63,999 nucleotides of DNA, filler included, from 14 parts of 14 records of this genome joined end to end with filler, not necessarily neighbours in it, one strand, 5' to 3'; positions 9,280-63,999 are shown, counted from the first letter of the whole stretch. Numbers and translations are program-made. Notes: generated from the sequence alone by a model not told the origin.

Positions 9280-12200
9280 ATGATAGATTCAATCATTCGA
9301 TTCAGCATATATAATAAGCTGACAATCGGTTTATTGGTATTGGCATTGGCGACTTGGGGTGGTGTTTCACTAACTCAATTAACCATTGATGCCCTTCCAG
9401 ATATTACTTCCAATCAGGTGCAAGTAATTACGCAGTCGCCAGCTTTGCCTGCTTCTGAAGTAGAAAAATTTATTACTTATCCGCTAGAAATCTCATTAAG
9501 AACTGTTCCTAATACCAAAGAAATTCGTTCAATTTCAAGAATGGGTTTATCGGTTATTACTGTCGTTTTTGATGACGATGTGCCTACCGAAAAAGCCAGA
9601 CAACAAGTTTCTGAAAAAATTAGAGAAGCAGAACCTAATTTAATTGCTGGTGCTGGTCGCCCAGAGATGGCGCCAATTACCACTGGTCTTGGCGAATTTT
9701 ACCAATATACTTTGGTCGTTGACCCAAAATTCAAAGACAAATACTCTTTAGCTGATTTACGAACCTTGCAAGATTGGGTTGTGAAAAGACAACTTTTAGG
9801 CATAAAAGGCGTCGTAGAAGTAAGTTCTTTTGGTGGACATTTGAAGCAATACGAAGTCTCAATTAACCCAGAAAAACTAAGAGCGATGAATTTGAGCGTC
9901 GCAGAAGTATTTCAAGCTTTGCAAGATAACAATGCCAATTCTGGCGGTAGTTATATCGAGAAAGGTACAGATGCTTACTTTATTCGTTCGGAAGGAAGAG
10001 TAAATAGTTTGCAAGATATTGAAAACGTTGTGATTACTACTCGTGGAGGCGTTCCTGTGTTGGTAAATGATGTGGCGAAAGTTCAGTTTGGTCATGCAGT
10101 GCGATATGGAGCGATGACTCGTAATGGCGAAGGTGAAGCTGTTGGCGCAGTTGTACTTTTACTGAAAGGTGAATCTGCCGAAAAAGTAGTGGTAGATGTT
10201 AAGAAAAGAGTAGCAGAAATTCAAAAATCTTTGCCAGAAGGCGTAAAAGTAGAATCGTTTATTGATAGGAGTAAACTGATTGATAAGTCTATCGGTACGG
10301 TTCAGAAAAACTTGATTGAAGGTGGTTTAATCGTGGTTTTTATTTTGGTTTTATTCTTGGGAAATTTCAGGGCAGGTTTGGTCGTTGCTTCGGTGATTCC
10401 ACTTTGTTTACTTTTTTCTTTTGCCATGATGAAACTCTTTGGTGTGTCGGCTAATTTGATGTCACTTGGTGCGATTGACTTTGGTTTGATTGTCGATGGA
10501 GCAGTAATTATCGTAGAAGCCGTTGTACACCGATTACACACTAAAACCATTCCTGAAAATCATGACGGACAAGCTTACAGACTCACTCAGCTTGAAATGA
10601 ATGAATCTGTGTATGATTCAGCCGTTACGATTCGGAAATCTGCTGCATTTGGTGAAATCATCATTTTGATTGTTTACTTCCCAATACTTGCCTTGACGGG
10701 TATCGAAGGAAAAATGTTTCGCCCAATGGCTGAAACGGTAAGTTTTGCCATTATTGGCGCATTGATTTTGTCGTTGACTTACGTGCCGATGATGTCTTCT
10801 TTATGTTTAAGTAAAAAGATTGACCATTCAGAAACCATTGCTGATAAAATTATCAACTTTTTATATCGTTTCTATCAACCAATTATTACTTGGTCGTTGA
10901 ATAAGAAAACGATTATTTTAAGTACTTCATTGGCATTTTTTGTAGCAAGTTTGATGCTTTTCGGCAGTTTGGGCGGTGAATTTATTCCTGAATTGAATGA
11001 AGGTGATTTTGCTGTTGAAACCATTCTTCACAGTAATGCTTCATTGTCTCAAAGTGTGTATTCTAACAATGAAGCAGAAAAGCTTTTACTTCGTGAATTT
11101 CCCGATGAAATAGTGCAAATAGTGTCCAGAATTGGTTCTTCCGAAATTCCAACTGATCCAATGGGTATCAATGCCTGTGATTTAATTATTGATTTGAAAG
11201 ATACCAAAGAATGGAAAAAAGCGGAAACGATGGAAGAACTCGCCCAAAAAATGGATGATGTTTTGAAAGATATTCCGGGTGTCACTTTTGAATTTACGCA
11301 ACCTATTCAAATGCGTTTTAATGAATTAATTGCAGGCGTAAAGTCGGATGTAGCCATTAAAATTTTTGGAGAAGATTTAGATGTTTTATTCGAAAAAGCC
11401 CAAGAAGTAGCCAAGAAGATTCATAAAGTAAATGGTATCGCTGATATGAAAGTACAGCAAATTGATGGCGTACCACAAATGGTGGTAACTTACAATCGTC
11501 AGAAAATAGCTCAATATGGTTTAAAAATCAGCAATCTGAATACTTTGTTGAAATCAGCTTTTGCAGGCGAAGAAGCAGGCGTTGTTTATGAAGGAGAAAA
11601 ACGTTTTGGTTTGGTTATTCGATTGGATTCTTCGTACAGAAAAGACATCCAAAATATCCGAGATTTATACTTGGATTTACCCAATGGTGGTAAAATTCCT
11701 TTCTCGGAAGTAGCAGAAATTTCATACAAAGATGCGCCTGCTGAAATTACCAGAGATAATGCTCGCCGTAGAATTTCGATTGGTATTAATGTTAGAAATC
11801 GTGATGTAGAAAGCTTGGTGAAAGAAGTTCAAACGATTATCGACAAACAAGTAAAACTCCCAATTGGCTATACCGTTGAATATGGTGGTGCTTTCGAGAA
11901 TCTTCAAGCCGCTAAAAGTAGATTGTTTATTGCTGTGCCTGTGGCACTTTTCTTAATTTTTGCGCTTTTATTCTTTACGTTCAATTCTTTTGTAGAAGCC
12001 TTGATTGTCTTTGTAGCGATTCCACTTTCGGCAATTGGTGGTATTTTATCTCTTTGGTTGCGTGATATGCCTTTTTCTGTTTCAGCGGGAATTGGTTTTA
12101 TTGCTCTTTTTGGTGTAGCGGTTTTAAATGGTATCGTACTGATTTCTTACTTTAAAATTCTGGAAAAAGAAGGAATAAGTGACATTAAGCAAAGGATTTT

Positions 12201-13611
12201 AGAAGGAACAAAAACTCGTTTCAGACCCGTCATGATGACGGCGGCTGTGGCTTCGATGGGTTTTTTACCAATGGCTTTGAGCCATTCGCCCGGTGCAGAA
12301 GTACAAAGACCTTTGGCAACGGTAGTAATTGGTGGATTGATTACCGCAACCATTCTTACTTTGGTGGTTTTGCCTGTGATTTACAGTCTGGTTTTTGGTA
12401 GAAAACCAAAAGCTTCGAAAACCCTAATTACTTCAATCGCTTTATTATTGATAAGTACAGCCACTTTTGCACAAAATACTCCGCCACAGAATTTGCAAAT
12501 GTGTATTGATAAAGCGGTTCGTCAAAACCAAAATGTACAGATTGCCAATTTAGAAATTTCCGGGAATCAAGCTTTGGTAAAAACGGCTAAAGAATTGCCC
12601 AAAACCAGTTTTGATGCTCAATACGGGCGAACACAAGTTTTCAACGGAAATGATGTAACCTTTACCGTTGGACAATCTTTTGCTTTGCCAAGTTTGTATA
12701 AAGCTCAAGAAAATTTGCTAAAAGGCAATGTGTTGACGGCTGAAAAACGTGCAAAACTCACCAAAACACAATTAATAGGCGAAGTAAAAAGTGTTTACTT
12801 TCAGATTTTACATACGCATCAATTTATTCAATTATTAGCCCAGCAAGACAGCCTTTATCAGAGTGCTTTCAAAGCGGCTTCGGTGCGATACAAAACTGGC
12901 GAGACGGATTTATTAGAAAAAGTATCTTCCGAAACTCGACTCAGAGAAATCCAAAATCGTATCCAACAAAGCCAAGCTGATGAGCAGAATTTGTATCAAA
13001 CATTAAGGTTTTTGATGAATACCAACGAAAACTTTGAGATTGATTACGCAGGAAATCAACAAAAAGCAATGGTGTTAAGTAATGCTGAATTAGCTTCTAA
13101 TCCTTTCTTAGAAATCATTAAACAGCAAAGCGAAGTAAGCAAATTGCAAACCAATTTGGAACAACAACGCTTGAAACCAGATGTAAGATTGGCGCTAACC
13201 AACCAAAGTATTGAAAATCATTTCAATCAAAACTTTGTACAGCTTGGGCTAAATGTGCCGATTTTTACCAAAGCGCAACAAGCTAGAATTACCGCTTCAA
13301 AAATCAACGAGCAAGTAATTACTCAGCAATATCAGTATGCTGAAAACCAATTACAAAGTCAGTTGAATTCATTGAAAATACAGTTTGATAAAGCTGAAAA
13401 ATCACTGAATTATTACAAAAATTCAGCCTTGCCACAAGCGGAATTGATTGCTAAAACGGCTTCAAAAAGCTATCAATCAGGCGAAATTGAATATGTGGAA
13501 TTTGTACAGAATATCACACAAGCTTGGCAAATCAAAGAAAATTACTTAGCTGAACTACAGCATTTTAATCAAATTATCATCAATATCGAAACTTTAATTG
13601 GCAATGAATAA
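9280..13611 (+). CDS. czcA: CusA/CzcA heavy-metal RND efflux transporter fused to a C-terminal TolC-like outer-membrane factor
   Basis: IDALPDIT, NLMSLGAIDFGLIVDGAV, EGKMFRPMA, RFRPVMMTA and QRPLATVVIGGL, followed by about 380 aa of helical OEP-like sequence; 1443 aa total. Confidence 0.93.
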   Translation: MIDSIIRFSIYNKLTIGLLVLALATWGGVSLTQLTIDALPDITSNQVQVITQSPALPASEVEKFITYPLEISLRTVPNTKEIRSISRMGLSVITVVFDDDVPTEKARQQVSEKIREAEPNLIAGAGRPEMAPITTGLGEFYQYTLVVDPKFKDKYSLADLRTLQDWVVKRQLLGIKGVVEVSSFGGHLKQYEVSINPEKLRAMNLSVAEVFQALQDNNANSGGSYIEKGTDAYFIRSEGRVNSLQDIENVVITTRGGVPVLVNDVAKVQFGHAVRYGAMTRNGEGEAVGAVVLLLKGESAEKVVVDVKKRVAEIQKSLPEGVKVESFIDRSKLIDKSIGTVQKNLIEGGLIVVFILVLFLGNFRAGLVVASVIPLCLLFSFAMMKLFGVSANLMSLGAIDFGLIVDGAVIIVEAVVHRLHTKTIPENHDGQAYRLTQLEMNESVYDSAVTIRKSAAFGEIIILIVYFPILALTGIEGKMFRPMAETVSFAIIGALILSLTYVPMMSSLCLSKKIDHSETIADKIINFLYRFYQPIITWSLNKKTIILSTSLAFFVASLMLFGSLGGEFIPELNEGDFAVETILHSNASLSQSVYSNNEAEKLLLREFPDEIVQIVSRIGSSEIPTDPMGINACDLIIDLKDTKEWKKAETMEELAQKMDDVLKDIPGVTFEFTQPIQMRFNELIAGVKSDVAIKIFGEDLDVLFEKAQEVAKKIHKVNGIADMKVQQIDGVPQMVVTYNRQKIAQYGLKISNLNTLLKSAFAGEEAGVVYEGEKRFGLVIRLDSSYRKDIQNIRDLYLDLPNGGKIPFSEVAEISYKDAPAEITRDNARRRISIGINVRNRDVESLVKEVQTIIDKQVKLPIGYTVEYGGAFENLQAAKSRLFIAVPVALFLIFALLFFTFNSFVEALIVFVAIPLSAIGGILSLWLRDMPFSVSAGIGFIALFGVAVLNGIVLISYFKILEKEGISDIKQRILEGTKTRFRPVMMTAAVASMGFLPMALSHSPGAEVQRPLATVVIGGLITATILTLVVLPVIYSLVFGRKPKASKTLITSIALLLISTATFAQNTPPQNLQMCIDKAVRQNQNVQIANLEISGNQALVKTAKELPKTSFDAQYGRTQVFNGNDVTFTVGQSFALPSLYKAQENLLKGNVLTAEKRAKLTKTQLIGEVKSVYFQILHTHQFIQLLAQQDSLYQSAFKAASVRYKTGETDLLEKVSSETRLREIQNRIQQSQADEQNLYQTLRFLMNTNENFEIDYAGNQQKAMVLSNAELASNPFLEIIKQQSEVSKLQTNLEQQRLKPDVRLALTNQSIENHFNQNFVQLGLNVPIFTKAQQARITASKINEQVITQQYQYAENQLQSQLNSLKIQFDKAEKSLNYYKNSALPQAELIAKTASKSYQSGEIEYVEFVQNITQAWQIKENYLAELQHFNQIIINIETLIGNE

Positions 13612-27100: not shown

Positions 27101-28436
27101 AAGGACCGGCGAGTACCTTAGCGCACGGGGGCTCGAACTCTGCCCCGCACTTACTCTCTACCCCATCCTCTCAGCGAAACCGCTCGGATACTGCCACGTC
27201 AGCGTCTGTACCCCCCCCNNNNNNNNNNNNNNNNNNNNNNNNNNNNNNNNNNNNNNNNNNNNTTAATTAATTAANNNNNNNNNNNNNNNNNNNNNNNNNN
27301 NNNNNNNNNNNNNNNNNNCCCCCCCCCACCACGGCATGCACATCACGCTCGAGCATCTCCACGATGACCTGCAGCACCAGACACGCGTTCCGCTCCACAC
27401 ACAGCTGCTGGTAGCTCTGGTCGAGATTCACATCGCTGCCCAGCCCGTCTCCCCCTACAGAATTCAACACGAACAAGAAGAAAAGAGCAAAAGGAAGAAA
27501 AAACATCGAGTGAGGAGGCTGATCTTGCGAGCCATTTTATCTTGTGAATAGACGATGTTGTGAATGTTCCTTCTGCACCAGTCTCTATTTTCCGAATCAG
27601 TGAAGAAGACAAAAAGCATTGTCGACATCAGAGCTTTCTTCCCCAGCGAAATGAAAGGTGGTATAATAATACAAATATCTATTTGGCAGTTTGTCTCTCC
27701 AACGCCAAATGAGCTCTGCGGCAGCTAATGATTAACTCGCTAACATTTTGGATGTTCTCGCGCGATAACATGAGCCCAAGCAGACCAAGCATACCTGCAT
27801 CATTAGCGACGCTGCCGGCTTCAGTGGAACTCAGCGGATCACTAATGTCACCAAATAGATCACTATCGGTGACACCTTTCCCTCTTCCCCTGCCTCTCCC
27901 TCTCCCCCCCCCCTCTGGCTCCTCTCCCTCTCCCTCTTCCCCTACCTCTCCCCCTTCCTCTCCCCCGGCCGCCAGGCACGTCATTGGCGAGAAAGTTTGG
28001 CATGCCCAAGTCAGGCTCACTCGCACTCAGGTCTTGCATTGCTACATCTCCATCCTACACCATGTTCACGACACAGGTGGACGATGAAAATCAGAAAATG
28101 TAGGTTGGGGTAAATCCATAAAGCCACAAAGTGTTCAATACATTCATTAACAATTGAGAATTTATGGTTGTCATTATCCAATCTGGAGCAAAAGCCGGAT
28201 AAATTCGACATCATCATGGCGTCATGAAGAATAAAGTTGGATATTTATGGACTGAGAACAAAATACAATAGAAAAATAAATAAAAAAATGTTAGAAGAAT
28301 TGGGATTTGTCAATCTCAGGGATTGCCACACCCCAGAAGAATTTGGAGCGATACGAGAATGATATTAGATTTCATCATCAAATCCCATCTTTCACAAGAC
28401 AATACAAGACATTTCGCATCATATGAGATTACATAC

Positions 28437-35775: not shown

Positions 35776-36336
35776 ATCTAATGTCACAGATGGGCGCACA
35801 TATTGGGTTTGACTATTTTAGACTATTTCAACTGATAATTATTTATCACTCGAACCTCCATTTTTCTGTTTCGATCGCACATAGAAAAAATGCAGGGATC
35901 ATATCCAATATTGGAAACTTTGGATCTCACATCCACATTCATTTTCTGATACGTATTTAAGCAGCTGCCGGTTACCCTAGGCGTTATAATGGCGATGATA
36001 GATGTCGATTCGATCAATCTAGCCGAAAATGCGATCTCGCTTTTGCAAAAAAGTCGCAAGTGATTGCTGCTTTATTTTGGTTTTCGTTCGAAGAGAGCTC
36101 AATAAAATCGTTTGCTCACACACGCTGTGTTTCACCCGGAACTTGTCCAAAAATGAAGCGAGAGATAAAAGTCCCGATAAAAGTCCCGAGAAAGGAATTC
36201 AATCGAAATATTGGACCTATTACCGATCTGCGACCANNNNNNNNNNNNNNNNNNNNNNNNNNNNNNNNNNNNNNNNNNNNTTAATTAATTAANNNNNNNN
36301 NNNNNNNNNNNNNNNNNNNNNNNNNNNNNNNNNNNN

Positions 36337-39300
36337 GTTGGTGCAAGTGACACCATCACCAGAGTAGCCGGTGTTGCAAGCGCATCGGAAGCTGCCAGCG
36401 GTCTCGACGCAAGTGGCCGTGGACGCGCAGTTGTCAGTGTTCTTGGTGCACTCGGCAGTGTCATCGCACACCAGACCGGTGCCAGAGAAGCCAGTGTTGC
36501 AAGAGCAAGTGAATGAGCCAGTGGAATCGGCGCAAGCGGCGTTGATGTCGCAGTTGTCGATCGCGCTGGAGCACTCGTTGGTGTTGGCGCAAGTGAGCCC
36601 GTCACCCTCATAGCCAGCGTTACACATACAGTAGAAGCTGCCAGAGGTATCGATGCACGCAGCCTCGGCAGCGCAGTTATCAGTGTTCAGAGTGCATTCA
36701 TCAGCATCGCCGCAAGAAGTGCCAGTACCAGAGAAGCCATCGAGGCATTCACAAGTGAAGGAGCCATCGGTGTTGGTGCACTCGGCATTGCGGTCGCAGT
36801 TGTGGAAGCCGCCGTCACACTCATCCAAGTCGGCGCACTCCAAGCCAGTGCCAAAGTAGCCGAGGTTGCATTCACAGGAGAAGGAGCCAGCAGTGTCGAT
36901 GCAGGTAGCCAGAGTGGCGCAGTCATGGAGAGAAGCAGTGCACTCATCCACATTGGCACAGGAGCCTTCCTTGTCCTCATAGCCCAAAGAGCATTCGCAA
37001 GAGAAGGAACCAGCGGTGTTGGTGCAGTTGGAGCGAGGAGGACAGCTATCCGTGGCAAGCGCGCACTCATCGACATCAACACACTCAGAGTCAGTGCCGT
37101 TCATCTGCATCGTGTAGCCGGCATCGCACTCGCACCAGAAGCTACCGATGGTGTCGACACACGTGCTGGACATGGCGTCGCAGGAATCGACGGCAGTGTC
37201 ACACTCATCGATATCGCTGCAGTCAAGGCCATCGCCCTCGAAACCAGTGTTGCACTCGCAGGCAAAGGAGCCATTGGTGTTGTTGCAAGCGGCAAAGAAG
37301 TGGCAGTTGTGGGTGGCAAGCTCGCACTCATCAGTGTCCAGGCAGGGCTGGCCACTGCCATAGTACCCAGCGTCACAGGTGCACTGGAAGCTGCCATAGG
37401 TGTCGGAGCAGAGAGCATTGGGATCGCAGTCGTGGATAGCAAGCTCGCACTCGTTCACGTTCAAGGGGAACTCATAGGACTGACCAGCCCAGACATCACA
37501 GTCATAGCCAGAGATGCAGCCGCAAGTAAAGCTGCCGTCGGTGTTGATGCAGTCAGTCATGGACATGCAGCCATGGAGACCAAACTCGCACTCATCCACA
37601 TCCGTGCAGTTCTGACCGTTGCCAGTGTACCCGGTGTTGCAGGAGCACAGGAAGCTGCCATAGGTGTCAGTGCAAGTAGCGTTGAGGTCGCAGGAGTGAG
37701 TGCCGAAGAGGCACTCGTCCACATCGCCGCAGTCGATGCCATCGCCGCTCCAGCCAATGGGGCATGAGCAAGTGAAGGAGCCGTCGGTGTTGTTACAAGC
37801 AGCGTTCGGGCCGCAAGTGTCGAGAGCAAAGACGCACTCGTCCATATCGACGCACAGGGAATCGGACAGATAGTAGCCGGCATCGCAGGAGCAGATGAAG
37901 CTGCCCGGGATGTCGATGCAGTCAGAGAATTCAGGGCAAGTGTCCAAGGCGAGCTCGCACTCGTCGACGTTCGCGCAAGTCACACCATCGCCTTCATACC
38001 CGACGTTGCAGTCGCAAGTGAAAGACCCAACGGTGTTGGTGCAGTTGGCACGAGGATGGCAGTTGTCATAGCCGAGATCGCACTCGTCGAAATCACCGCA
38101 AGTGACACCATCGCCAATAAGGCCAGTGCCACAGCCGCACACGAAGCTGCCGTAGGTATCCGTGCAAGCAGAGTCAGCATCACAGTTGTGGAGGCCAAGC
38201 GCACACTCGTTGGCGTTGGGGCAGCTCACACCATCACCGTCGAAACCAGAGTTACAAGTGCAAGTGAAGCTACCTTGTGTATCAGCGCAGACGGACTCCA
38301 AGTCGCAGTTGTGAGTAAGCAGAGAGCACTCATCGATGTTGGTGCAAGTGAGACCGTCGCCGAGGTAGCCGATGGGGCAGGCGCAAGTGAAGCTGCCAGC
38401 AGTATCCGTGCAAACACCAACAACAGGGTCGCAGTTATCGGTGGCAATGGTGCATTCATCGATGTTGACGCAAGACACACCATCACCCTCATAACCGAGG
38501 TTGCAGGCGCAAGAGAAAGAGCCATGGAAGTTGGTACAGGTAGCGTTGGCATCGCAGTTGTCAATGGCAAGCGTGCACTCATCGCGTTCGGTACAGACAG
38601 TGCCGGAACCAGGCAGACCAGCGGGACAAGTGCAAGTGAAGCTACCAGGGGAATTGGCACAAGTGGCAGTGGAGTCGCAGTTGTCAATGCCGATAGTGCA
38701 CTCATCGACTTCAGAACAGGTGAGGCCAGTGCCAGAGTAGCCGAGGTTGCAGGCGCAGTAGAAGCTGCCCGGAGTGTCCGTGCATGTGGCAAGAGTGGAT
38801 TCGCAAGTGTCAGTGTTGAGGGTGCATTCATCGTCATTCGTGCAAGTGACACCATCACCAGTGTAACCGAGGTTGCAAGCGCACTCGAAGCTGGCATAGG
38901 TGTTGGTGCAGGTGGCTTCCTCGTGGCAGCTGCTAGTGCCCAGAGTGCATTCATCATCCTCCTCGCAAGTCACACCGTCACCAGAGAAGCCCACAAGGCA
39001 GTCGCAAGAGAAGCTGCCGATAGAGTCAGTGCAGGTAGCCTCAGAGGAGCAAGTAGAGCCAGCAGTACATTCATCGATGTTCTCGCAAGTCACACCGTCA
39101 CCAGAGTAGCCATCATTGCACACACATTCGAAGCTGCCGGCAGAGTTGGTGCAAGTGGAGCCATAGATAGCGCAGTTGTCAGCGCCAGTGGCACACTCAT
39201 CGTCCTCAGTACAGGTAAGACCATCACCAGAGTAGCCAGGGTTGCAAGTGCACCAGAAGCTGCCAGAGGTGTCAGTACAGGTGGCATCGGCGGCGCAGTC

Positions 39301-39784
39301 AGCGGCACCAAGGTTGCATTCATCATCATTCGTACAAGCGAGACCGCTGCCAGAATAACCGATGTTGCAGGCACAGGTGAAGCTGCCGTCAATATCAGTG
39401 CAAGTAGCCTCAATATTGCAGTTGTGCACCAAGGTTGTGCACTCATCGATGTTAGTGCAAGAAACAGTGGCATCGCCTTCATAGCCCTCATTGCAGGCAC
39501 AGCTGAAGCTTCCCACAGATTCAGTGCAAGTCGAGAAAGCAGCGCAGTTGTGAGACCCTTCCACACACTCATCGTAATTGGTGCAAGTGAGACCATCACC
39601 GGAGAAACCGGCGTTGCAGGCACAAGTGAAGCTACCAATAGTGTTGGTACAAGTAACACCAGAGCTAGCACAGCTGTCAATGCCAGTAGCACACTCATCG
39701 ACCTCAGTACAAGTCAAGCCATCTCCAGAGAAGCCAGTGAGGCAAGCGCAGGTGAAAGAGCCAGCAGTGTTGGTGCAAGTGGCA
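36337..39784 (-). CDS. Fibrillin-like tandem calcium-binding EGF repeat protein (internal fragment, about 27 repeats)
   Basis: Uninterrupted frame across the whole contig with repeated D-x-D-E-C...C-x-N/D-T-x-G-S-F-x-C-x-C..GY.GDG..C. Confidence 0.97.
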
Positions 39785-39884
39785 NNNNNNNNNNNNNNNN
39801 NNNNNNNNNNNNNNNNNNNNNNNNNNNNTTAATTAATTAANNNNNNNNNNNNNNNNNNNNNNNNNNNNNNNNNNNNNNNNNNNN

Positions 39885-50000: not shown

Positions 50001-50488
50001 GAACCTGGACATAATGCTGTGCTTTTCTTTCTTTGGTCATATTTGCAAAAAACATGTACATGACACAAATTACAAACATCTCAGACTCACACTCGTCACA
50101 ACCCCCCCCCCCCCCCCCCCCCCCNNNNNNNNNNNNNNNNNNNNNNNNNNNNNNNNNNNNNNNNNNNNTTAATTAATTAANNNNNNNNNNNNNNNNNNNN
50201 NNNNNNNNNNNNNNNNNNNNNNNNATACAGGTAATGTATCACACTACGATACATGTCATACACGCATATACCGTTTCTGCAGGGTATGATGTTGTATACT
50301 ATTACGGTAGAACTCCCAACAGAAAAATTAGTGCAATAGACACTGTCGTAAACTTACCGATTGCGTGTGGTCTGTTACGCCCCGGTCGTTACCTACACTC
50401 TACTCGTGTAGTGTACAACAACACGTACAGGCATTTCCGAAACCGTATACTACATGACAGTACATATTAGTATAACACTGTAACGTAT

Positions 50489-53400
50489 ACGCCTTTCCGG
50501 GGTTATACCTAATCGGTACGGTACTAGTAATACTACGATTACCAGCACAGTAGACGTAACATGCATACGCGTAATGCATGAGGTACAAATACAACGGCAT
50601 AAGAGCTTCTGAATACATACCACGTGTTGTATGCTTGTCTGTATTTGTGTATAGATACAACTGTTATGTACTAGTATACGCCCCGGAAAGGTGTAAACAC
50701 ATCCACTGTATACCTAACGGTATGTTACGTATTACATAACAGTATATGCACGTTGCGTACTAGTAGAACACGGGATAAGAATCATAGCAGGTGTGTATAG
50801 TATTCTCAGTAGGATTGCTTTCTATTTTTGTGATTGTATGTATTTGCTACAATTACAACATGCACATTGGAAAGGTGTGTCTCCCGACAGAAGGTTAACC
50901 CATAAGGTGTACACCTTTCCGTGTATACGTATATAACACGCATTAAAAACAAAAACATACAAAAAAAGATAAAAATTATTGTATACCGTATACCCGCATG
51001 ACGCAGGGAAGTGGCGTGTTAATAACATGTGTTTATGCATATATGGATATTTAAATTATGTATCGTCTACGTATAGATAATCAATCCCAGTTAAGCCGTG
51101 TTGATAACAGTATATCCTTACGTAATAAATGTACCGGTATCGTTTTAATAGGTTGTTACAATTTTTAACAGTGTTGTATTGTTGTTATGTAGAACAACGC
51201 ACAACTATTTTTTATAGGAAAAACGTTATACGTTAGTGTAACTATAAGCTATACAGAGGTAGGACAATGCACAACACCTTTCCGGGAATAACGTTTGTAG
51301 CGTATAATTTATACACAAACAAACAGACCAGCAATAGTATAATACGTATACCGGTATGTACGCCTACGTATTTGTACGCAATGCGGAATACATGTATGCA
51401 TGTATAGATGTAATTGATAAAGATCCATGCGTTCTATATCTTCCCGAAGGAATACTACAAAGTGTGTATGTTAAACATACACAACCGATATGGTACACTA
51501 GTTATGTTACATACGTACGCGTGGGAGTGTATACTGTATGCATGTTACGCAGCATGTACTCCTCCCAGGTAAATGTTCTTCTACGAAATATCTGTTGTAT
51601 GTGTAGCAGTACCATCTCATAATACGGCCACACCTTTCCAGGGTGTAATGTTATGTATACTTAACCGTAACAATCACAAACAAAAAATGAAAAAGTAACT
51701 CCTACGTTACATGCGGTATTTACTGCCTCCTCCCGGGGTATGCATGTTCCTCATACTATATAGTACGGTAGGTGTGTATTAAGTGGGAGGTTATCTTGGT
51801 TTTTTGTTATTTTCCCGGGTAGCATTCATCTGCAGGAAAGGTGTACCTCCAGGGCGTAACGGGTTATACGCTTTACGTTACATAACCGTAACACATCACA
51901 TGTACCATGTACGGTTTTAAATTATGTCATGCACACAGCGAGTAACAGCATGTACATGCATTATTAATCGTAAACTACAATGTGCATCACGTGTACCGTG
52001 TACAATACATATGACCCCACATGATCGTGTTCTACATTTTTTGATTGTTGTGTGTACACTACATTCTATACTTTTACAGGAAAGGTGCATAACAAACGTA
52101 CGTTAACCGATTACTATGATCGTACCATACTAACATACGAAGTCATGTACAGTAATATAATACATACACCTTTCCTAGGTAGTATTATGTGTATAATAAC
52201 CTACAACAACTACGACAATAAACAACATGAAAATAATTATATCATGTACACGCCACGCGTATACGCACATACCGGTATACATCGTGCATAGTCTTGTGTC
52301 TTGTTTTTGTTTGTTGTCTTTAAGTGCATTAATACATATCATTGGAAAGGTGTACACGTATTAATCGTATAATGTGTACTTCAAATAGTATTACGACGTA
52401 TACACTGTAAACGTCCACTGTATATCTTATATTAAGTTGCGTTCCGGGGATAACCCTCAGGTATGCGTAATCGTGGTGCGACACACACGGTCTACGTAAT
52501 ATATGGCTTCGTTACTAGTCTCACATATTTTTGTTACTACATAAATTATAAAATACAACAACAACCATCACTGCCGGGGTAATGACTACGCCTTAATATA
52601 TTACTCGCAGTACAGGGGTTATTTCGGGCACGTGTATTTGTACTACGCGGTACATTATACATATACGTATGTAATACACCTTTCCATGTATGTACATAAG
52701 TAACATTGAACACATCAAATCTGAACCTAAAAACAAAAATATGTAGACATTACTGGGAGGAGGATGCAAACCGATAACCTACCATGAAAAACAGCTTGTA
52801 TAAATGGTACGCTATACGGTTTACATGTTATCTCCTCCTGGGTTATCACGTATACACACGTATACTAATAGTTCGGGCACGTGCACTACGTTATCGTGGT
52901 AAATGTATGTTGGTACATACCACCCCGTGTGTACAATAATGCCACGGGACAGCATAGTATGTTCTACGGTAATATGTGTGTCTCGTAAGTCATGCACCTG
53001 GGGGTCACACCTTTCCAACAAGTGCATTCAAATACGTAATTACCTATCGGAATTAATAAGTAGTAATCCTACCGATATGTACTAGGGGGCGTACACTTTG
53101 TTGTACATATTTAATATGTGTGTCACATACCCGGTAAACATACCTTTGCGGGTAATCTACGTGTTGTATAGTTATCGGCGTCTTTTTAGACAACATGACA
53201 TACGGGATACAACTTATTCCGGAAATGCACGCGATTCGTGGTATACTAGACGGATATGATGTACTATATCCGTGCGTATAGTATGTAATGTACATCACCA
53301 GGAAAGGTAATGACATATCATAAGATTTTGTAATAGCGTAAACCAGTATAGTGGTAACTAACCCTCTCGATATGTGCGTAACGAACGTATAGTTTTACGA

Positions 53401-55031
53401 TGTGTATATATACGCGTAATATACCCGCGTAGGTATACTACTTTTATACAGGGTTGTACCCCAGCAATGGGATGTATGTATTAATAGTAAACGTAAGTTG
53501 TACCATATGAACCTACACCTTTCCTGTTGTGACTTACGACGTAATATCGTGTAAACACAACAAAAAAAAAGCACATATATATTACAGGATGTTTATCCAA
53601 ATCACACCGTGTTTTTCACGAATACTACTCGTGACGTATGTCTACCGTGTATCGTTTTTTTTAAGTAGTAAACCTTCGCGAGCATAAGATAGTTACACAA
53701 CTCTATATAACATGTATACATCACCACGCCTTTCCTAGGTAGACGTAACGCACATTACACGCACACACAAATCACAAAAAAATAAAGAAATTACATGTAA
53801 ACGCCGTCGTGTATATTTGGTTGTATTACATACCCGAGAACCGATGTGTGTTTGCGTGGACTATGTACTATAGCGGATTAACTGTCACACCTACATGTAT
53901 TTACTATTGTTTAATGTGGATTTAATACACATACGCAGGTCCTACATATATCAGGAAAGGTGTATGATGCATGTAGTACATTACATGGCATGTAAAATAT
54001 AGTAACTACATGTACATATGTATATGGTGATCAGTTACCGCTCACCACCAGGGGTGTGGTGTATACATGTATGTGATATAAACATATTACGTGTTGCTTG
54101 CAACAAATAAGTTTACAGTATTGTATACAGTATACGGTGGATGTTATTAATTGTATACGTACGTTGTGGCTATGTTGGTGTCCGTAATTTAAAGGGTATA
54201 CTTTTACAGAACACACTAGAACAAAATGTGGCATACGTTACAATCGCATGGAAGGAACACCTTTCCGTAAATGCATACCGGGACATATAATACAAACGGG
54301 AACACAAATCATTTCAAATGTCTGTCAACCGTGCATATGTGAATCCCGGTCATTGTGTGTTTACTTAAAACCCGTACACGTAATACATTTCCGACATGGT
54401 GTCAACATAGACTCATTACACGACAGTTGTACACTGCATCTACTATGAGGGTAGCACTTATAAAAATCACCTTTCAGTAGTTCTAATATACAACGTGCAC
54501 TTATGTACGTGACACCTTTCCGGAATATGCACATGTAACAACACATTATTCTGCTAACGCATAAAAATATAATAGAAGTATGTACCGTTAATTAACATTG
54601 CACGCACATTGCGTAACATACGTACACCTTTCCTAAAGAGAGACACTGCTTAGGTAAACACATCAACAAAACACATACCGTACGTAGTATTACATAGTAT
54701 GTTATGCGTACTGTCTTTGCAGGTACAAGGTATACACATTGCGTGTAAGCGACTGTACCTGTACATCCGGGCGTGTGTCGAACATATGTATGCTGTATAC
54801 ATGCAACACACCTTTCCTAATAAAAGTGTAAGTACGTTACATATACATGCAACAATAAACTAACATGAAATTAGTCTTGAGACATACGTTGATATACAAA
54901 TAGGGCGTACCGCATCGGGTGTAATCCATCTTTTACAATTTGTTGTCACTCACGTAGTAACGTAGTCTATACCCGTGGTACAGGAAAGGTGTACTATGCA
55001 CATATATGTATACAACAGTACACACCTTTCC
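50489..55031. repeat. Dispersed bidirectional decamer array ACACCTTTCC/GGAAAGGTGT (about 23 copies) with unique spacers
   Basis: Exact on +: 50911, 51274, 51630, 52166, 52676, 53007, 53515, 54257, 54512, 54624, 54808, 55022. Exact on -: 50685, 50869, 51835, 52344, 53954, 54983. Variants: 50489, 52079, 53301, 53726, 54467. Confidence 0.97.
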
Positions 55032-55410
55032 AATGTGCCTGGTATCTTACAATAAACGAACTACAATCCATAAATCAAACAAGCCTACACGATACACACT
55101 TAGCATACATGACGTAATATTAGTGTACACGACATTGTAAAGTTTTTATTACATGTACTTGTAGTTACGTTACTGTATAATGTACGCAATGACTGAAATC
55201 ACTTTCCACCGCGTATATGTTGTCGGTATATACAATTACACCTACAAAAAGTATAGCTGCATGTACGTACATATATAAGTACATACCCCGTGTCCTGCGT
55301 ATGCGTATAGTAACATTCATCACACGCAATACTAATCCGGGACATGCATACATTCGGAGAGGTTAATAGTACGTGATGTTTTCCATCAGAAAAAAGGAGA
55401 GTAGGTTTCT

Positions 55411-55553
55411 ATCGGGAAAACTTTAAATTAAAATTTTCGGAAAAGTAAGAATCCGGATGAAAGTATATCCTCAGGAAAATTTCCGGGGAAACTTTCAGGG
55501 AAAATTTCGGGAAATTACAGGAAAACTCCCGACGGGAAAATTTCCGGGGAAAA
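55411..55553. repeat. Degenerate 10-15-bp quasi-palindromic repeats GG(G)AAAATTTCC at contig end
   Basis: GGAAA starts at 55415, 55439, 55474, 55487, 55499, 55510, 55520, 55535 and 55548. Confidence 0.85.
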
Positions 55554-56892: not shown

Positions 56893-58065
56893 ATGACAAG
56901 TCGATTCGATGAAGACCAGCATATGGAAAGCTTCAATGTCGATAATGACTTTGAAGGCGGACAGTGGATCAATGGCGAGTTCTTTTATGAAAAAAAGAAA
57001 GAGAGGCGTCGAATGACCAAAGATGAAGCCCTCTATGGATATGATTCTGATGATGATCGCAATAATCTGAAGAAAATGCGTGTGGATAAGCCCCTTTTCT
57101 TTGTGAAATCCGATGAGGTCATGGGTGGGGATAGTACTGAAATGAAGAAGGCTGAGCCTGCCCCAGCTAGTGCAGCAGCTGAGGCCCCTACACCAGCACC
57201 TCGTCCTCCACCGCGCGGCTCTGCAGGCTTTGCAGGCCTTCGCCAAGCCACAGCTCCGATCGCTGAATGGGAAAAACACACCAGGGGTATTGGTATGAAG
57301 CTTCTTGAAAAGATGGGATACAAGAAAGGTCAGGGTCTTGGTAGGGATGGAGCGGGTATTGCTGAGCCTATTGCTGTGAAATTGCGCCCGAAAGGAGCCG
57401 GTCTGAGCTTTGGCGATTTCGATGAGAAAACCACACAGCAGAAATTGAATGAGTACGAGCAGATGCCTGAAGAGGCTGTCGCACCAGAGGCAGTCGCTGA
57501 GCCTGTTCCCCAGCTGTGGAAGCGCGGGAACAAGGAAAAGAAAAAGAAAATTGTTTATCGTACTGCTGAGGATGTCGTGACCGAATCCGAAGGCAGACCT
57601 ATTATTGTGGACATGCGAGGGCCTCAAGCCCGTGTAATCACAAATCTCACAGAATTGAAACATACCCCGACTGGAGAGATGAAACTCCATCCGAAAAAAT
57701 TCCCCGAATTGCAACACAATGTGAAACTCCTCGTGGATTTAGCAGAATTGGACATTCAGAACTTGGACCGCAAAATCAAGCTCGAAAAGGACCGTCTCAT
57801 TGCCCTAGGCAAAGAGCGAGAAAGCCTCGAACAGCAACTACTAGAAGATGACCTGAAGGAAAAGCGCCTCAGCGAAGTGTGCCGTATAGTGGCAGAGTGC
57901 AAGGGCATGGAGGGTGTGGACATTCAGGACATCATTGGTATCTTCCAGCTCTTACGTAGTGACTATCGCGAAGAATGGACTTTGTATAATATCAGCGCCA
58001 TGATCCCGGCTGTGGCTATCCCGAGATTGAATGAAATGCTGCACACGTGGGACCCCCTGCGGCAG
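56893..58065 (+). CDS. TFIP11: Tuftelin-interacting protein 11 / Ntr1 G-patch spliceosome disassembly factor, first exon
   Basis: DFEGGQWINGEFFY..TKDEALYG (TIP_N), G-patch WEKHTRGIGMKLLEKMGYKKGQGLG..GI.EPI, IVDMRGPQ and PELQHNVKLLV. Confidence 0.93.
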
Positions 58066-58757
58066 GTACATTTTCTGTTATTTTTCTTCCCGTTTTGTTA
58101 ATTTAAGACGTTGTTAATCTCATATTGTGAAAATGCATTTATCTTTCCTGATACACTCATCCATTCCCTTATTCTTGTACTCACACTCACACCACTCTCA
58201 TTTATTTGTCCAATTCATGACGATAACATTAGCACCACCCATCACTCATACGTGCCGTTCATATCGTCTAATTTGCACTGGCTACGAATTTGCCACTCGT
58301 CTTGCTCTCTCGTACTCCTCATGTTGTTCATTTCTCCTCGGTCATTCATCCCGAATCCTTCTCTACGGATTGACCATCAAATCAACTTCCCCGACATTTC
58401 CCATCAGTATCCCAAACCCTAAAACCCCAATTCCACTATCCAAACCGTTAGATCCCCTCTTATCTGTCATATCCTCACACTATCCAGTCTCTATTGCTGT
58501 AACGATAGAGAAATAGCAGGCATGAACCGCTATTCGTCGAAAGCATATTCATTCGCCCGAATCTTCATATATTTGATCCCCATTGTGGGCTTAGTTATTA
58601 TGTGTTTGATCGCGGGATAGTTCAACAATGATTTTGGTAATGATGAGCTTCTTTTATNNNNNNNNNNNNNNNNNNNNNNNNNNNNNNNNNNNNNNNNNNN
58701 NTTAATTAATTAANNNNNNNNNNNNNNNNNNNNNNNNNNNNNNNNNNNNNNNNNNNN

Positions 58758-61496: not shown

Positions 61497-63808
61497 GTTC
61501 GATCCCTGGCATGCTCCGACTCTGGTGTCTTCGAGGCCTCGGATGAAATTGGAGTGCTGATCTGGAAGGCACCGCCTCCCAGGGAAACAGGTAACGTTCC
61601 TGATCATATTTTGCCCTCGTCGACCCTATATTATCAACCCTTTGATTCTGGTAGTTTCTCGGCTTATCTGCTCTCTATGCCCTCAATGATTCTGGTAATT
61701 TATGAGCAATATTTATTTCGACTCGCTGTCCAGATGAAATTAGCACACCTCGACGTGGTGTGCGCGATGACGGGGTGAGCACCCCCCACAGTGCCCTGCG
61801 GTCCTCCTCGGATCACACCCATGCCCAGGCCCATACCCAGCCCCCACCCTCACCCTTGGTCTCTACCCCATCGCACACCCAATCACACACTCCCCCACAC
61901 GCACAGTCACACCCACCATCCACCTCCGCCACGCGCTCCGCCCACACCCATCCCCTGACGTCCCCTCGACTCGCATCCACTCGCCAGTCCACCACTAGCA
62001 GCCCCAGTACCAGCACTACTTCGACCACTGCGGTTCCAGCTCTTGCTCTCGGAAATCCGTCCTCTTCTGCTGCGCAGACTCCAGTCAGTACAGCCACAAA
62101 TACTGCTACTACGAGTCATAATATTTCACCAACCGTGGCAGCGCGTGCTACTGCCCAGCTCGCTATGGGTACAGCAGAACAGGACCTCGATGACGAAGTC
62201 TTTGTGAGAAAGCGCAGAAAGCCAGCGCAGAGGCAACCCGCTCAGACACAGCTACAGCCACAACCACCTTCATCCACCTCCAGAAGTGCCAAGGACACTG
62301 CTGCTGCACTACTGACCGAGTCAGAGAGCGGTACGCCCATTCTGGCGGAGAAAGAGCCCTCACAGGCCTCATCTTCATCCTTGGCGACAGTACCCATACC
62401 TGCCCTCGGGGATATCGCAATGGAATTGTCTGATGCAAACGCACAGTCAGGAGCTAACCGGTCTAGCCCCTCGGAGTCCCTTACCACATCTTCGAGCACA
62501 CGGTCCAAGAAAACGAAAAGAAAGTAGGTCTTTCACTTTTTCTTTCTCTTTGGTTTTTGTTTCTTTGTTGCTTCCTTTCTTTTTCTGTGTGTGTTTGTGA
62601 CTCTGAGAGCTTTCAGCTCTTATTTTGTTGTCGCCGACATGTATATTTGCTCGGGTACAGTGTGTGATGTATGTGGCTTTCGTATATATATTTGAGGGCG
62701 GAAACGAAATGATTTTTAGAACAAATCACGTGGGTATGGGGAAAGGGCTAATCTTCAACAAATTAGTAAAATATCGACTTACATTTTATATTCTCTCTCT
62801 GGATATGCACAGAATTGAACCAGAGGCAGCAGCGTCATCCGTCTCCGTAACTGAAATACCCGATAAAAAGGCCAAGACTGTGACCCCACTCAGAAAATCA
62901 CAGCCCGATTCCCACGCTACGAAACCCATCTCTGAGGTATGCGTACATCCTGGAAGTAGATCAATGCAGTTACTCTCGCACACCCTCTATCTTTCCCCTC
63001 GAGTTGATTTCCTGTATCGATTTCTGACCCTCATAAAAATTTACCGTGCATTTTCATTACCGCCTATCTGCATTCTCTATCCCATTATCATACCAACCCC
63101 CCGGGCTCACTTCACTCTCTCTCCGACCTTACATTGCACTATGTCATTCCCACTCAAACCAAATCAGGTCCATCCCGTGGAGGCGAAGCGCTCAGTGTCC
63201 CCAGAGATGAAGCCCTCCATTGCCAGCCCCAACAGTAGTAGTAGTATTAGTGGCAATCAGTCTGTTCCTAATGCCCCTCCATCCACAAGCTCCAAGGCAA
63301 CGGCTCGCAGGAAACTCGGATTGCAAGATCAAAGCCACGCACCCACATCTACATCGCAGCAGCATGAAGCACCCAAGGAATCCATCAGCCAGCTTCATGC
63401 CGAGCAAGCCTCGGCACCAGCGCAATCATCTCTTCCTTCTTCATCAGCATCCATCATCCCTTCATCATCCGAATCTGTTTCAACGATCCCTGTCCCGATG
63501 ATGGTGTCAAACGATGTGGATAAGGGGGAGTCTGGGTTTGAGATCGGAGTAACAGGTGCAAGCACTAGTGAGAGTGATAGTCAGGCCACAAGACTTGGAC
63601 ATGCAGGGGTAGGAAATGGAGTGGGGACTGTTCTAGGTCATCATGATGAAGGGGATGGTCAGGGTCAGGGTCAGAGTGACCATGAGAGTGCCCATGAACA
63701 ACAGAGTAGTGGGTTGCCTCGGGACCCGCAGGCGGAGATGCAGTCACTGAATGACGCTGTGCGGTTCCTCACTGAGGATAACGATGTCTTGATGGCCGAG
63801 CTTCTCAG
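61497..63808 (+). CDS. Spliced eukaryotic gene with long S/T/P/Q-rich low-complexity exons, function unknown
   Basis: Open frames at 61760-62527 and 62800-63808, GT-AG junctions (e.g. 62937 GTATGC to 63167 CAG) and a basic RKRRK motif. Confidence 0.5.
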
Positions 63809-63999
63809 GTATCTACTCCTATTCTCATTCTCCTCGATATTAGCATTCTCGCCTTGGCTATTCCGACCTCTCCCCTAAAGTGTTACTGAAGGGGCATATA
63901 ACGGGGTTCCAAAGATTCTCAGAAATCTGGAAAGTGTCACCCATTTCGTCGCTCCTTCAGTAGCCCGTTCCGGGAGAGAGAGAGAGAGAGAGAGAGAGA

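Follow-up and report, generated by a model that had tools for sequence, protein, structure and literature searches.

Short conserved motifs beside guide RNA (gRNA) genes have been described in kinetoplastids, in which these genes are organized in different ways. In Trypanoplasma borreli, gRNA loci occupy the two strands of a unique core that is flanked by repeats, with 18–30 loci and a mean of 23 per molecule, and the motif RYAGGCTTT lies 20–40 bp upstream of the gRNA (PMC9679448). This motif is significantly enriched beside the predicted loci, for which the authors themselves want small-RNA sequencing as proof, and the predicted gRNAs have a median length of 28 nt and only 0.11 G:U pairs per base, compared to the frequent G:U pairs (0.4 per base) given for Trypanosoma brucei in the same report (PMC9679448). 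In T. brucei, gRNAs start at RYAYA, 30–32 bp past a conserved 18-bp repeat (PMC6868439), and in Perkinsela the candidate gRNA genes adjoin a tract rich in A or in A and C, which is located upstream of the guide (PMC4669381). Here we describe an array of short units headed by the decamer ACACCTTTCC (the box), which fills one contig (positions 50225-55553, the array contig) of the 63,999-nucleotide stretch of DNA that we analysed (the window), and we discuss whether this array could be a set of gRNA genes.

Mini-genes with a short upstream motif are also found outside kinetoplastids. The nematode 21U-RNA (Piwi-interacting RNA) loci are thousands of autonomous mini-genes on both strands of nuclear, AT-rich DNA, each with the 8-nt Ruby motif CTGTTTCA about 40 nt ahead of a 21-nt RNA with U as its first base.

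Results

A decamer box repeated on both strands of a single contig

The array contig holds 18 exact copies of ACACCTTTCC, 12 on the plus and six on the minus strand, and the whole window 19. When the window was shuffled 100 times with its dinucleotides preserved, this number was never reached (shuffle mean 0.13). The box is therefore repeated far beyond chance, as the original prediction for this DNA had claimed for a decamer on both strands (18 exact copies vs. 0.13 expected in the window). Copies in the array contig increased to 21 when one mismatch was allowed and to 25 with two, and the core CCTTTCC was found 22 times (14 on the plus and eight on the minus strand) vs. 0.31 expected in a word count under a second-order Markov model, in which words derived from the box were the only ones strongly over-represented. 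The same prediction had the decamer in no other contig, which did not hold: there is one exact copy at 27872, within CT-rich low-complexity sequence, that looks like a chance occurrence.

When 21 copies of the box were aligned, conservation was confined to about 11 columns and the flanks were unrelated. Exact boxes are spaced 39–508 bp from start to start and are arranged in tandem, back to back (gaps of 32 and 29) or convergently (gaps of 195, 168, and 165), without a fixed higher order. No further direct, inverted or tandem repeat family was detected in the array contig, save for a tandem array at its right end (55474-55553). A scan of genome contigs with the back-to-back box pair returned 33 loci, which we estimate to be about the chance number, and none of them was rich in boxes, since 28 of the 33 contained merely the two boxes of the pattern itself and the rest three to five. 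We did not find the decamer or its complement in print as a motif, the matches listed being unrelated papers with primer- or construct-like strings. The original prediction did not recognise the decamer from any described system; as a claim that no such header has been described, this is too strong because species-specific motifs beside gRNA genes are on record.

The window consists of 14 contigs chained through spacers of N, and the array is one entire contig, 5329 bp long, with 37.8% G+C, about 22 box-headed units and no open reading frame (ORF) that we could assign to a gene. Its dinucleotide ratios (AC/GT 1.61, TA 1.36, and CG 1.30 vs. GA/TC 0.55 and AG/CT 0.63) reveal that most of its steps alternate between purine and pyrimidine. 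None of the other 13 contigs resembles it (TA 0.47–0.80 and AC/GT 0.69–1.10), so that the array contig comes from a genome or compartment other than that of its neighbours in the file. Two of these neighbours are bacterial, one with an AcrB-type pump and the other with a glycoside hydrolase, and the remaining ones are eukaryotic, carrying EGF repeats, PHD fingers, ankyrin repeats and a TFIP11-like protein.

The box heads an A/C-rich tract

We scored A/C-rich tracts by assigning +1 to A or C and -2 to G or T, with a threshold of 15. Almost all of the tracts detected on both strands of the array contig (14 of 15) follow a box of their own strand, 5–40 nt downstream of it, and, conversely, 14 of the 22 boxes head a tract that begins at +12 to +36, vs. 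3.6% of random positions (binomial P ~1e-15). These 14 box-headed tracts are 19–57 nt long, with a median of 29. In the mirrored controls at the 22 boxes there was no G/T-rich tract in that place and no tract on the opposite side. Furthermore, the A+C fraction after the core was 0.715 at +28 to +58 vs. 0.50 at random places, a value reached by none of 5000 resamplings, and the base make-up at +30 to +50 was A 0.54–0.56, C 0.19–0.25, G 0.08, and T 0.14–0.16. Both the polarity of the unit, with an A/C tract 3' of the box, and the positional enrichment in A and C had been put forward in the original prediction and are well supported by these counts. The reverse complements of the tracts resemble U-insertion-edited mRNA, such as the pan-edited mRNAs of kinetoplastids, and several of them contain open hydrophobic frames rich in F, L, V, and C.

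Some similarity between units was also seen outside the box. The spacers of units 4 (50925-50946) and 15 (53737-53758) start alike (TAACACGCATTA vs. TAACGCACATTA, at +14 and +11, respectively), and the best similarities among several other units are near register with the box and not above a shuffled null. These near-register similarities may reflect unit duplication or a weak second element.

Units of the array

We numbered the units from left to right. Unit 1 (plus strand) has a variant box, ACGCCTTTCC, at 50489-50498, which was recovered in the one-mismatch search, and no clear A/C tract; unit 2 (minus) has an exact box at 50685-50694 with its tract at 50624-50650. Unit 3 (minus; box 50869-50878, tract 50790-50846) is back to back with unit 4 (plus; box 50911-50920, tract 50935-50975), with a gap of 32 between them. 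They are followed by unit 5 (plus; box 51274-51283, tract 51313-51334) and by units 6 (plus; box 51630-51639, tract 51669-51694) and 7 (minus; box 51835-51844, tract 51767-51813), which converge with a gap of 195. Unit 8 (minus) combines a variant box, GCACCTTTCC, at 52079-52088 with a tract at 52037-52055, and units 9 (plus; box 52166-52175, tract 52198-52227) and 10 (minus; box 52344-52353, tract 52294-52321) form a second convergent pair with a gap of 168. The sole A/C tract that reaches the threshold without an upstream box is located at 52550-52571 (plus).

In the right half, tracts accompany unit 11 (plus; box 52676-52685, tract 52709-52739), unit 14 (plus; box 53515-53524, tract 53553-53575), unit 15 (plus; variant box ACGCCTTTCC at 53726-53735, tract 53747-53790), unit 19 (plus; box 54624-54633, tract 54656-54679) and unit 22 (plus; box 55022-55031, tract 55049-55099). 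No A/C tract follows the exact box of unit 12 (53007-53016, plus) or the variant box TTACCTTTCC of unit 13 (53301-53310, minus; two-mismatch search), and there is none at the usual offset from the exact box of unit 16 (53954-53963, minus). The exact boxes of units 17 (54257-54266, plus), 18 (54512-54521, plus), 20 (54808-54817, plus; score 10) and 21 (54983-54992, minus) head weak tracts; units 20 and 21 converge with a gap of 165, and unit 21 is back to back with unit 22 (gap of 29).

At 55390-55553 the make-up of the contig changes. This right flank shares TTTCCGGGG with several boxes and their flank, and it ends in a tandem array of 12–13-nt period (GGAAAATTTCCGG-type, 55474-55553), of which variant forms that extend for at least 255 nt are present in other runs. 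No repeat was seen at the left end of the contig.

Two elements of the contig recall the conserved sequence blocks (CSBs) of minicircles. The sequence GGGGTGTGGTGTA at 54051-54063 (plus) is what we take to be the CSB-3 (universal minicircle) dodecamer plus one extra base, and GGGCGT, presumably the core of CSB-1, occurs six times in the array contig vs. 1.27 expected (none of 500 simulations reached six). We consider both as weak hints of kinetoplast DNA. The GGGCGT sites are at 51852, 53087, 54769, and 54903 (plus) and at 50683 and 50382 (minus), and some of them touch a box, as in CCTTTCCGGGGCGT.

Coding capacity and known families

The longest stop-to-stop frame wholly within the array contig has 113 codons (53053-53394, minus), which exceeds the 88 aa that had originally been given as the upper limit. 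With TGA as the sole stop, TAA and TAG being read through, there are open frames as long as 534 codons, several of which overlap on both strands and are open simultaneously because TGA is depleted by the dinucleotide bias (0.47 of expectation). In a Pfam search with the six frames, with X at stops, the best matches had E values of 0.24 and 8.9 and there was nothing below, and the best PDB match of three read-through frames was an antibody fragment with an E value of 0.47. Nothing in the window matched an Rfam family at gathering scores, the single match of the right-end repeat (CsrB, E 0.6) being noise. Phage and plasmid collections contained nothing that matched at about 65–70% identity or above, and the viral contigs of IMG/VR yielded one chance match for the box pair and nothing for a 30-base piece of the array contig.

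Recurrence in public runs and transcription

The sequence of the array contig is present in 14 public runs from seven studies under 11 organism labels, and four of these runs contain 0.94–0.99 of the sampled words. We compared the contig with four runs from four other studies, a comparison in which the parts left uncovered in single runs are uninformative. All four were ~100% identical to it, with 26, 28, 21, and 12 of 30 bins covered, and the sole substitution in the unique part was T>C at 51987 in runs X5 and X6, the other variation between runs being restricted to the right-end repeat.

Six loose contig ends in runs X5 and X9 consist of one adapter-like string. We take it to be the template-switching oligo of SMART-type complementary DNA (cDNA) synthesis, and according to the matches listed in a literature search, the string co-occurs in 21 papers with "template switching". 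Because of these ends we consider X5 and X9 as cDNA; none of the runs with the sequence is recorded as RNA, and it is through the adapter ends alone that these two are recognised. The ends place RNA 5' ends at about 50465, 50693, 52664, and 53085 (plus) and at about 52702 and 55289 (minus), and those at 52664 and 52702 flank unit 11. Two cDNA contigs of run X9, 50465-50955 and 53085-53790, stop at the A-rich tracts of units 4 (in an A run) and 15, respectively, which would be expected if oligo(dT) had primed on the tract or if the RNA had a poly(A) tail. Long RNAs of the array thus exist from both strands.

Source organism

The TFIP11-like ORF of the window (56893-58101, plus) is closest to a Rhodelphis marinus protein from EukProt (51% identity, 98% query coverage), most of its other named matches being from green algae and land plants with 28–43% identity. 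As it stops 50 positions into the 275-position GCFC domain, it is probably followed by an intron. This closeness to R. marinus indicates that the main eukaryote of the assembly is a Rhodelphis-like predatory flagellate. Rhodelphids, prokinetoplastids, colponemids and other predators have been kept on Parabodo caudatus or Procryptobia sorokini, and sequences of the prey appear in RNA-seq or genome data of the predator, even under the name of the latter (PMC7859406, PMC8355241, PMC12495952). Kinetoplast DNA is very abundant and can exceed nuclear DNA in amount (PMC6334171). The spread over runs, together with the Rhodelphis-like gene in the window, makes a co-cultured parabodonid a plausible source of the array contig. 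T. borreli belongs to the order Parabodonida, as do P. caudatus and P. sorokini. A single prey or laboratory strain carried through many cultures would explain the recurrence under many labels, as one strain shared by these cultures would leave an ORF-free sequence almost letter for letter under the names of many organisms.

Other contigs of the window

Runs of C are found at ends or starts of neighbouring contigs (50100-50124 and 27319-27328), and they probably arose as artefacts during sequencing or assembly, the assembly being mixed and fragmented. One of the bacterial contigs carries a 1443-aa ORF (9280-13611, plus) with a complete AcrB-type resistance-nodulation-division (RND) pump (Pfam ACR_tran, residues 5-1038) and an outer-membrane efflux protein (OEP) domain, whose best stretch is 1271-1441, so it is either a fused pump-channel gene or two genes read through. 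Another contig of 3.4 kb and 56% G+C (36289-39828, minus) is in its entirety a single open frame without closed ends; its ORF 36289-39717 (1142 aa) shows 27 stretches of EGF_CA (calcium-binding EGF), the contig having about two dozen such repeats. Finally, two close ORFs on the same strand, 61760-62527 (plus, 255 aa) and 62625-63878 (plus, 417 aa), belong to no Pfam family, and for the second one no homologue was found among proteins of 229–730 residues, the protein atlas being uninformative.

Discussion

We consider it rather probable that the contig described in this work is a gRNA gene array on the kinetoplast DNA of a parabodonid-like flagellate, in which ACACCTTTCC is a species-specific motif adjoining the genes. 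The strict coupling of box and tract, the polarity of the unit, the non-coding nature of the contig, the cDNA from both strands and the near identity across runs are all observed features. A kinetoplastid origin, a function in editing and a role for the box are what we infer. The contig would derive from a high-copy molecule of the kinetoplast (mitochondrial) DNA of a kinetoplastid flagellate, most likely a parabodonid-like species that was prey or companion in the sequenced culture, and the array would encode gRNAs for uridine insertion/deletion editing. The box, (T/C)ACACCTTTCC, could be a gene-adjoining element, either a promoter or a processing signal, from which transcription would be directed away. 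The A/C tract would be the information region: on the edited mRNA its A residues would pair with inserted U and its C residues with G, few of the pairs being G:U. The gRNA would be trimmed from long precursors of both strands before a 3' U tail is added. A guide that pairs almost purely by Watson-Crick rules with a U- and G-rich message must be rich in A and C, like the tracts. If the units are gRNA genes, the tract itself is probably the guide, as the distances between motif and gRNA in T. borreli suggest, although there is a smaller but appreciable chance that it is a leader ahead of a downstream guide because the tract of Perkinsela lies upstream of the guide.

Several of our results weigh against this assignment. 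Eight of the 22 boxes have a weak A/C tract or none, and pairs of tracts with overlap or G:U compatibility, such as a highly redundant cascade could produce, are not in excess (top score of 42 vs. a null mean of 41.2). No target mRNA was found, with only low-power protein proxies tried: when two frames of the putative target of unit 15 were compared with 5.8 billion proteins (75–2000 aa), one candidate was returned and none scored, and this proxy, of low weight, covered one of the 14 tract-bearing units. The Pfam and Rfam scans revealed no kinetoplastid gene, spliced leader or maxicircle piece in the window, and the prey origin proposed for the runs is deduced from the literature and the run labels. 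Moreover, the motif RYAGGCTTT of T. borreli is absent from the array contig, with no exact copy and three copies at one mismatch vs. 4.0 expected, and ACACA, a start of the RYAYA type, is present at +20 to +36 in just nine of the 22 units, RYAYA being common all along the contig. A site like that of CSB-3 arises in 102 of 1500 first-order Markov simulations (6.8%). Finally, the six 5' ends at the template-switching oligo have no common offset from the box, and at least two of them (50693 and 53085) are next to runs of G, which the oligo can invade; because of both facts we take these ends solely as evidence for long RNAs of both strands. The gRNA-cassette interpretation of the original prediction is partly supported, being the best fit to our tests, with an organization like that of T. 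borreli, although no target or marker was found.

The features that favour gRNA genes could also be expected from promoter-headed genes for small non-coding RNAs in the nucleus or an organelle of a non-kinetoplastid eukaryote, with the box as upstream promoter element and the tract as the start of a short transcript, like in 21U-RNA or small nuclear RNA-type genes. The dense units on both strands, with a strictly conserved header and unique bodies, the transcription of both strands and a window without any kinetoplastid marker would all be in agreement with this. However, the Ruby motif CTGTTTCA has no copy in the array contig, no Rfam family was matched, the payload is low-complexity A/C rather than diverse, and the composition is unlike that of all the eukaryotic contigs of the window; in addition, near-identical copies under 11 labels in seven studies are hard to reconcile with a nuclear locus of one predator. 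We therefore judge this explanation unlikely, if still worth keeping in mind. A further possibility, to which we give slightly less credit, is an undescribed class of header-bearing mini-genes in another protist or its organelle, distinct from kinetoplastid gRNA loci, in which the decamer might be a constant RNA handle, similar to a repeat of the clustered regularly interspaced short palindromic repeats (CRISPR), joined to a variable A/C-rich guide. This would mean a second, independent RNA-guided system in eukaryotic organelles.

The units might otherwise yield no small RNA at all. In this case the contig would be non-coding high-copy DNA, with the box as a protein-binding site for packaging, segregation or, like the universal minicircle sequence, replication, and with the tract as a structural element, for instance one at which the DNA bends, unwinds or lacks nucleosomes. 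Such a role would fit the alternating purine-pyrimidine make-up, which suggests a structural constraint, the CSB-3-like 13-mer together with the GGGCGT excess, the lack of a fixed offset between the 5' ends and the box, and the fact that the complement of the box, GGAAAGGTGTA, has GGTGTA in common with the CSB-3 dodecamer. Nevertheless, a transcription unit would be strictly polar and would keep box and tract at a fixed distance on either strand, and binding sites need neither of these features; besides, the T. borreli motif, with a like distance and orientation, is enriched beside predicted gRNA loci (PMC9679448). This explanation seems to us improbable, to the same degree as the undescribed mini-genes. 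It is much harder to see the contig as a functionless assembly artefact or as decayed copies of an old repeat, in spite of its lack of coding capacity and database matches and of the fragmented mixed assembly in which some contigs end in homopolymer runs, because decay would not produce letter-perfect decamers, of which there are 18, amid unrelated flanks, and because the sequence was assembled independently in all four runs compared, from four studies; we consider this very improbable. Protein-coding DNA under another genetic code, which could account for the long frames open once TAA and TAG are read through, is hardly credible, since overlapping frames are open on both strands together as an effect of TGA depletion, none of the six read-through frames has a Pfam match with E below 0.24 and none of the three compared with PDB has one with E below 0.47.

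If the array does consist of gRNA genes, the decamer would be a simple handle by which existing data could yield the full set of gRNAs that a free-living parabodonid has; in the literature that we searched, no description of gRNA gene organization in free-living parabodonids was found. It would also be the third well-defined motif beside gRNA genes, T. brucei having its 18-bp repeats and T. borreli RYAGGCTTT. One could then compare the ways in which these mitochondrial genes are flagged for transcription or processing, and the array would support that short, G:U-poor gRNAs on multi-gene molecules are general in Parabodonida. Furthermore, kinetoplast DNA of the prey, being ORF-free, would evade protein-based decontamination and enter the assemblies and bins of other organisms.

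Comparison with known systems

Among the systems described so far, the gRNA molecule of T. borreli is the closest one. As there, the loci are on both strands of an ORF-free unique core (18–30 loci there and about 22 boxes here), with a short conserved motif upstream at 20–40 bp there and 12–36 nt here, and the median gRNA length of 28 nt there compares with a median tract length of 29 nt here, as 0.11 G:U pairs per base there do with a G content of 0.08 in our tracts; tandem repeats bound the core, which in our contig is seen at the right end alone (PMC9679448). The number of putative gRNA genes is thus of the T. borreli type, with 22 copies of the core motif, 14 on the plus and eight on the minus strand, and without repeats between units. 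In contrast, the motif is RYAGGCTTT in T. borreli and ACACCTTTCC here, the repeat units are the ~1-kb ScaI units there and have a 12–13-nt period here, and the identity of the gRNAs comes from alignment to edited mRNAs there, those here being putative (PMC9679448). In T. borreli the core has long inverse tandem repeats with CSB-3 on both sides (PMC9679448). The 164 nt of right flank examined here revealed no CSB-3. Because the motif differs, the contig is by definition not a T. borreli-type molecule.

The array shares with T. brucei a conserved repeat at a fixed upstream distance (30–32 bp there), an A-rich guide region, which is putative here, and precursors transcribed from both strands, and some of its convergent boxes (gaps of 165–195) recall the inverted repeats of that species (PMC6868439). 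However, in T. brucei imperfect 18-bp inverted repeats 80–150 bp apart enclose each cassette, on circles of 1 kb that carry CSB-1 and CSB-2 as well as CSB-3 (PMC6868439), whereas here a perfect decamer heads single, mostly unpaired units that point either way along a molecule of 5.3 kb or more. Exact boxes converge only three times in the array (gaps of 195, 168, and 165), most units being single or in tandem, and in the absence of framing inverted repeats the units are by definition not T. brucei cassettes. Perkinsela, as a non-trypanosomatid kinetoplastid, has ORF-free mitochondrial contigs in which an A- or A/C-rich tract adjoins the region complementary to the mRNA, and short tandem repeats end its three protein-coding mitochondrial contigs, not its gRNA contigs (PMC4669381). 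The tract is upstream of the guide there, and a common flanking motif is not reported by the authors (PMC4669381).

The nematode 21U-RNA loci resemble our units in being autonomous mini-genes on both strands with a short upstream motif, and they differ in that their payloads are diverse 21-mers beginning with U and not A/C-rich tracts. What the array has in common with kinetoplastid gRNA genes is an A-rich region at a fixed distance from a conserved flanking motif, as found for 14 of the 22 boxes and 14 of the 15 tracts. Pending further evidence, we would place it with those kinetoplastid gRNA genes that bear a conserved proximal motif, of which the decamer itself would be a new one.

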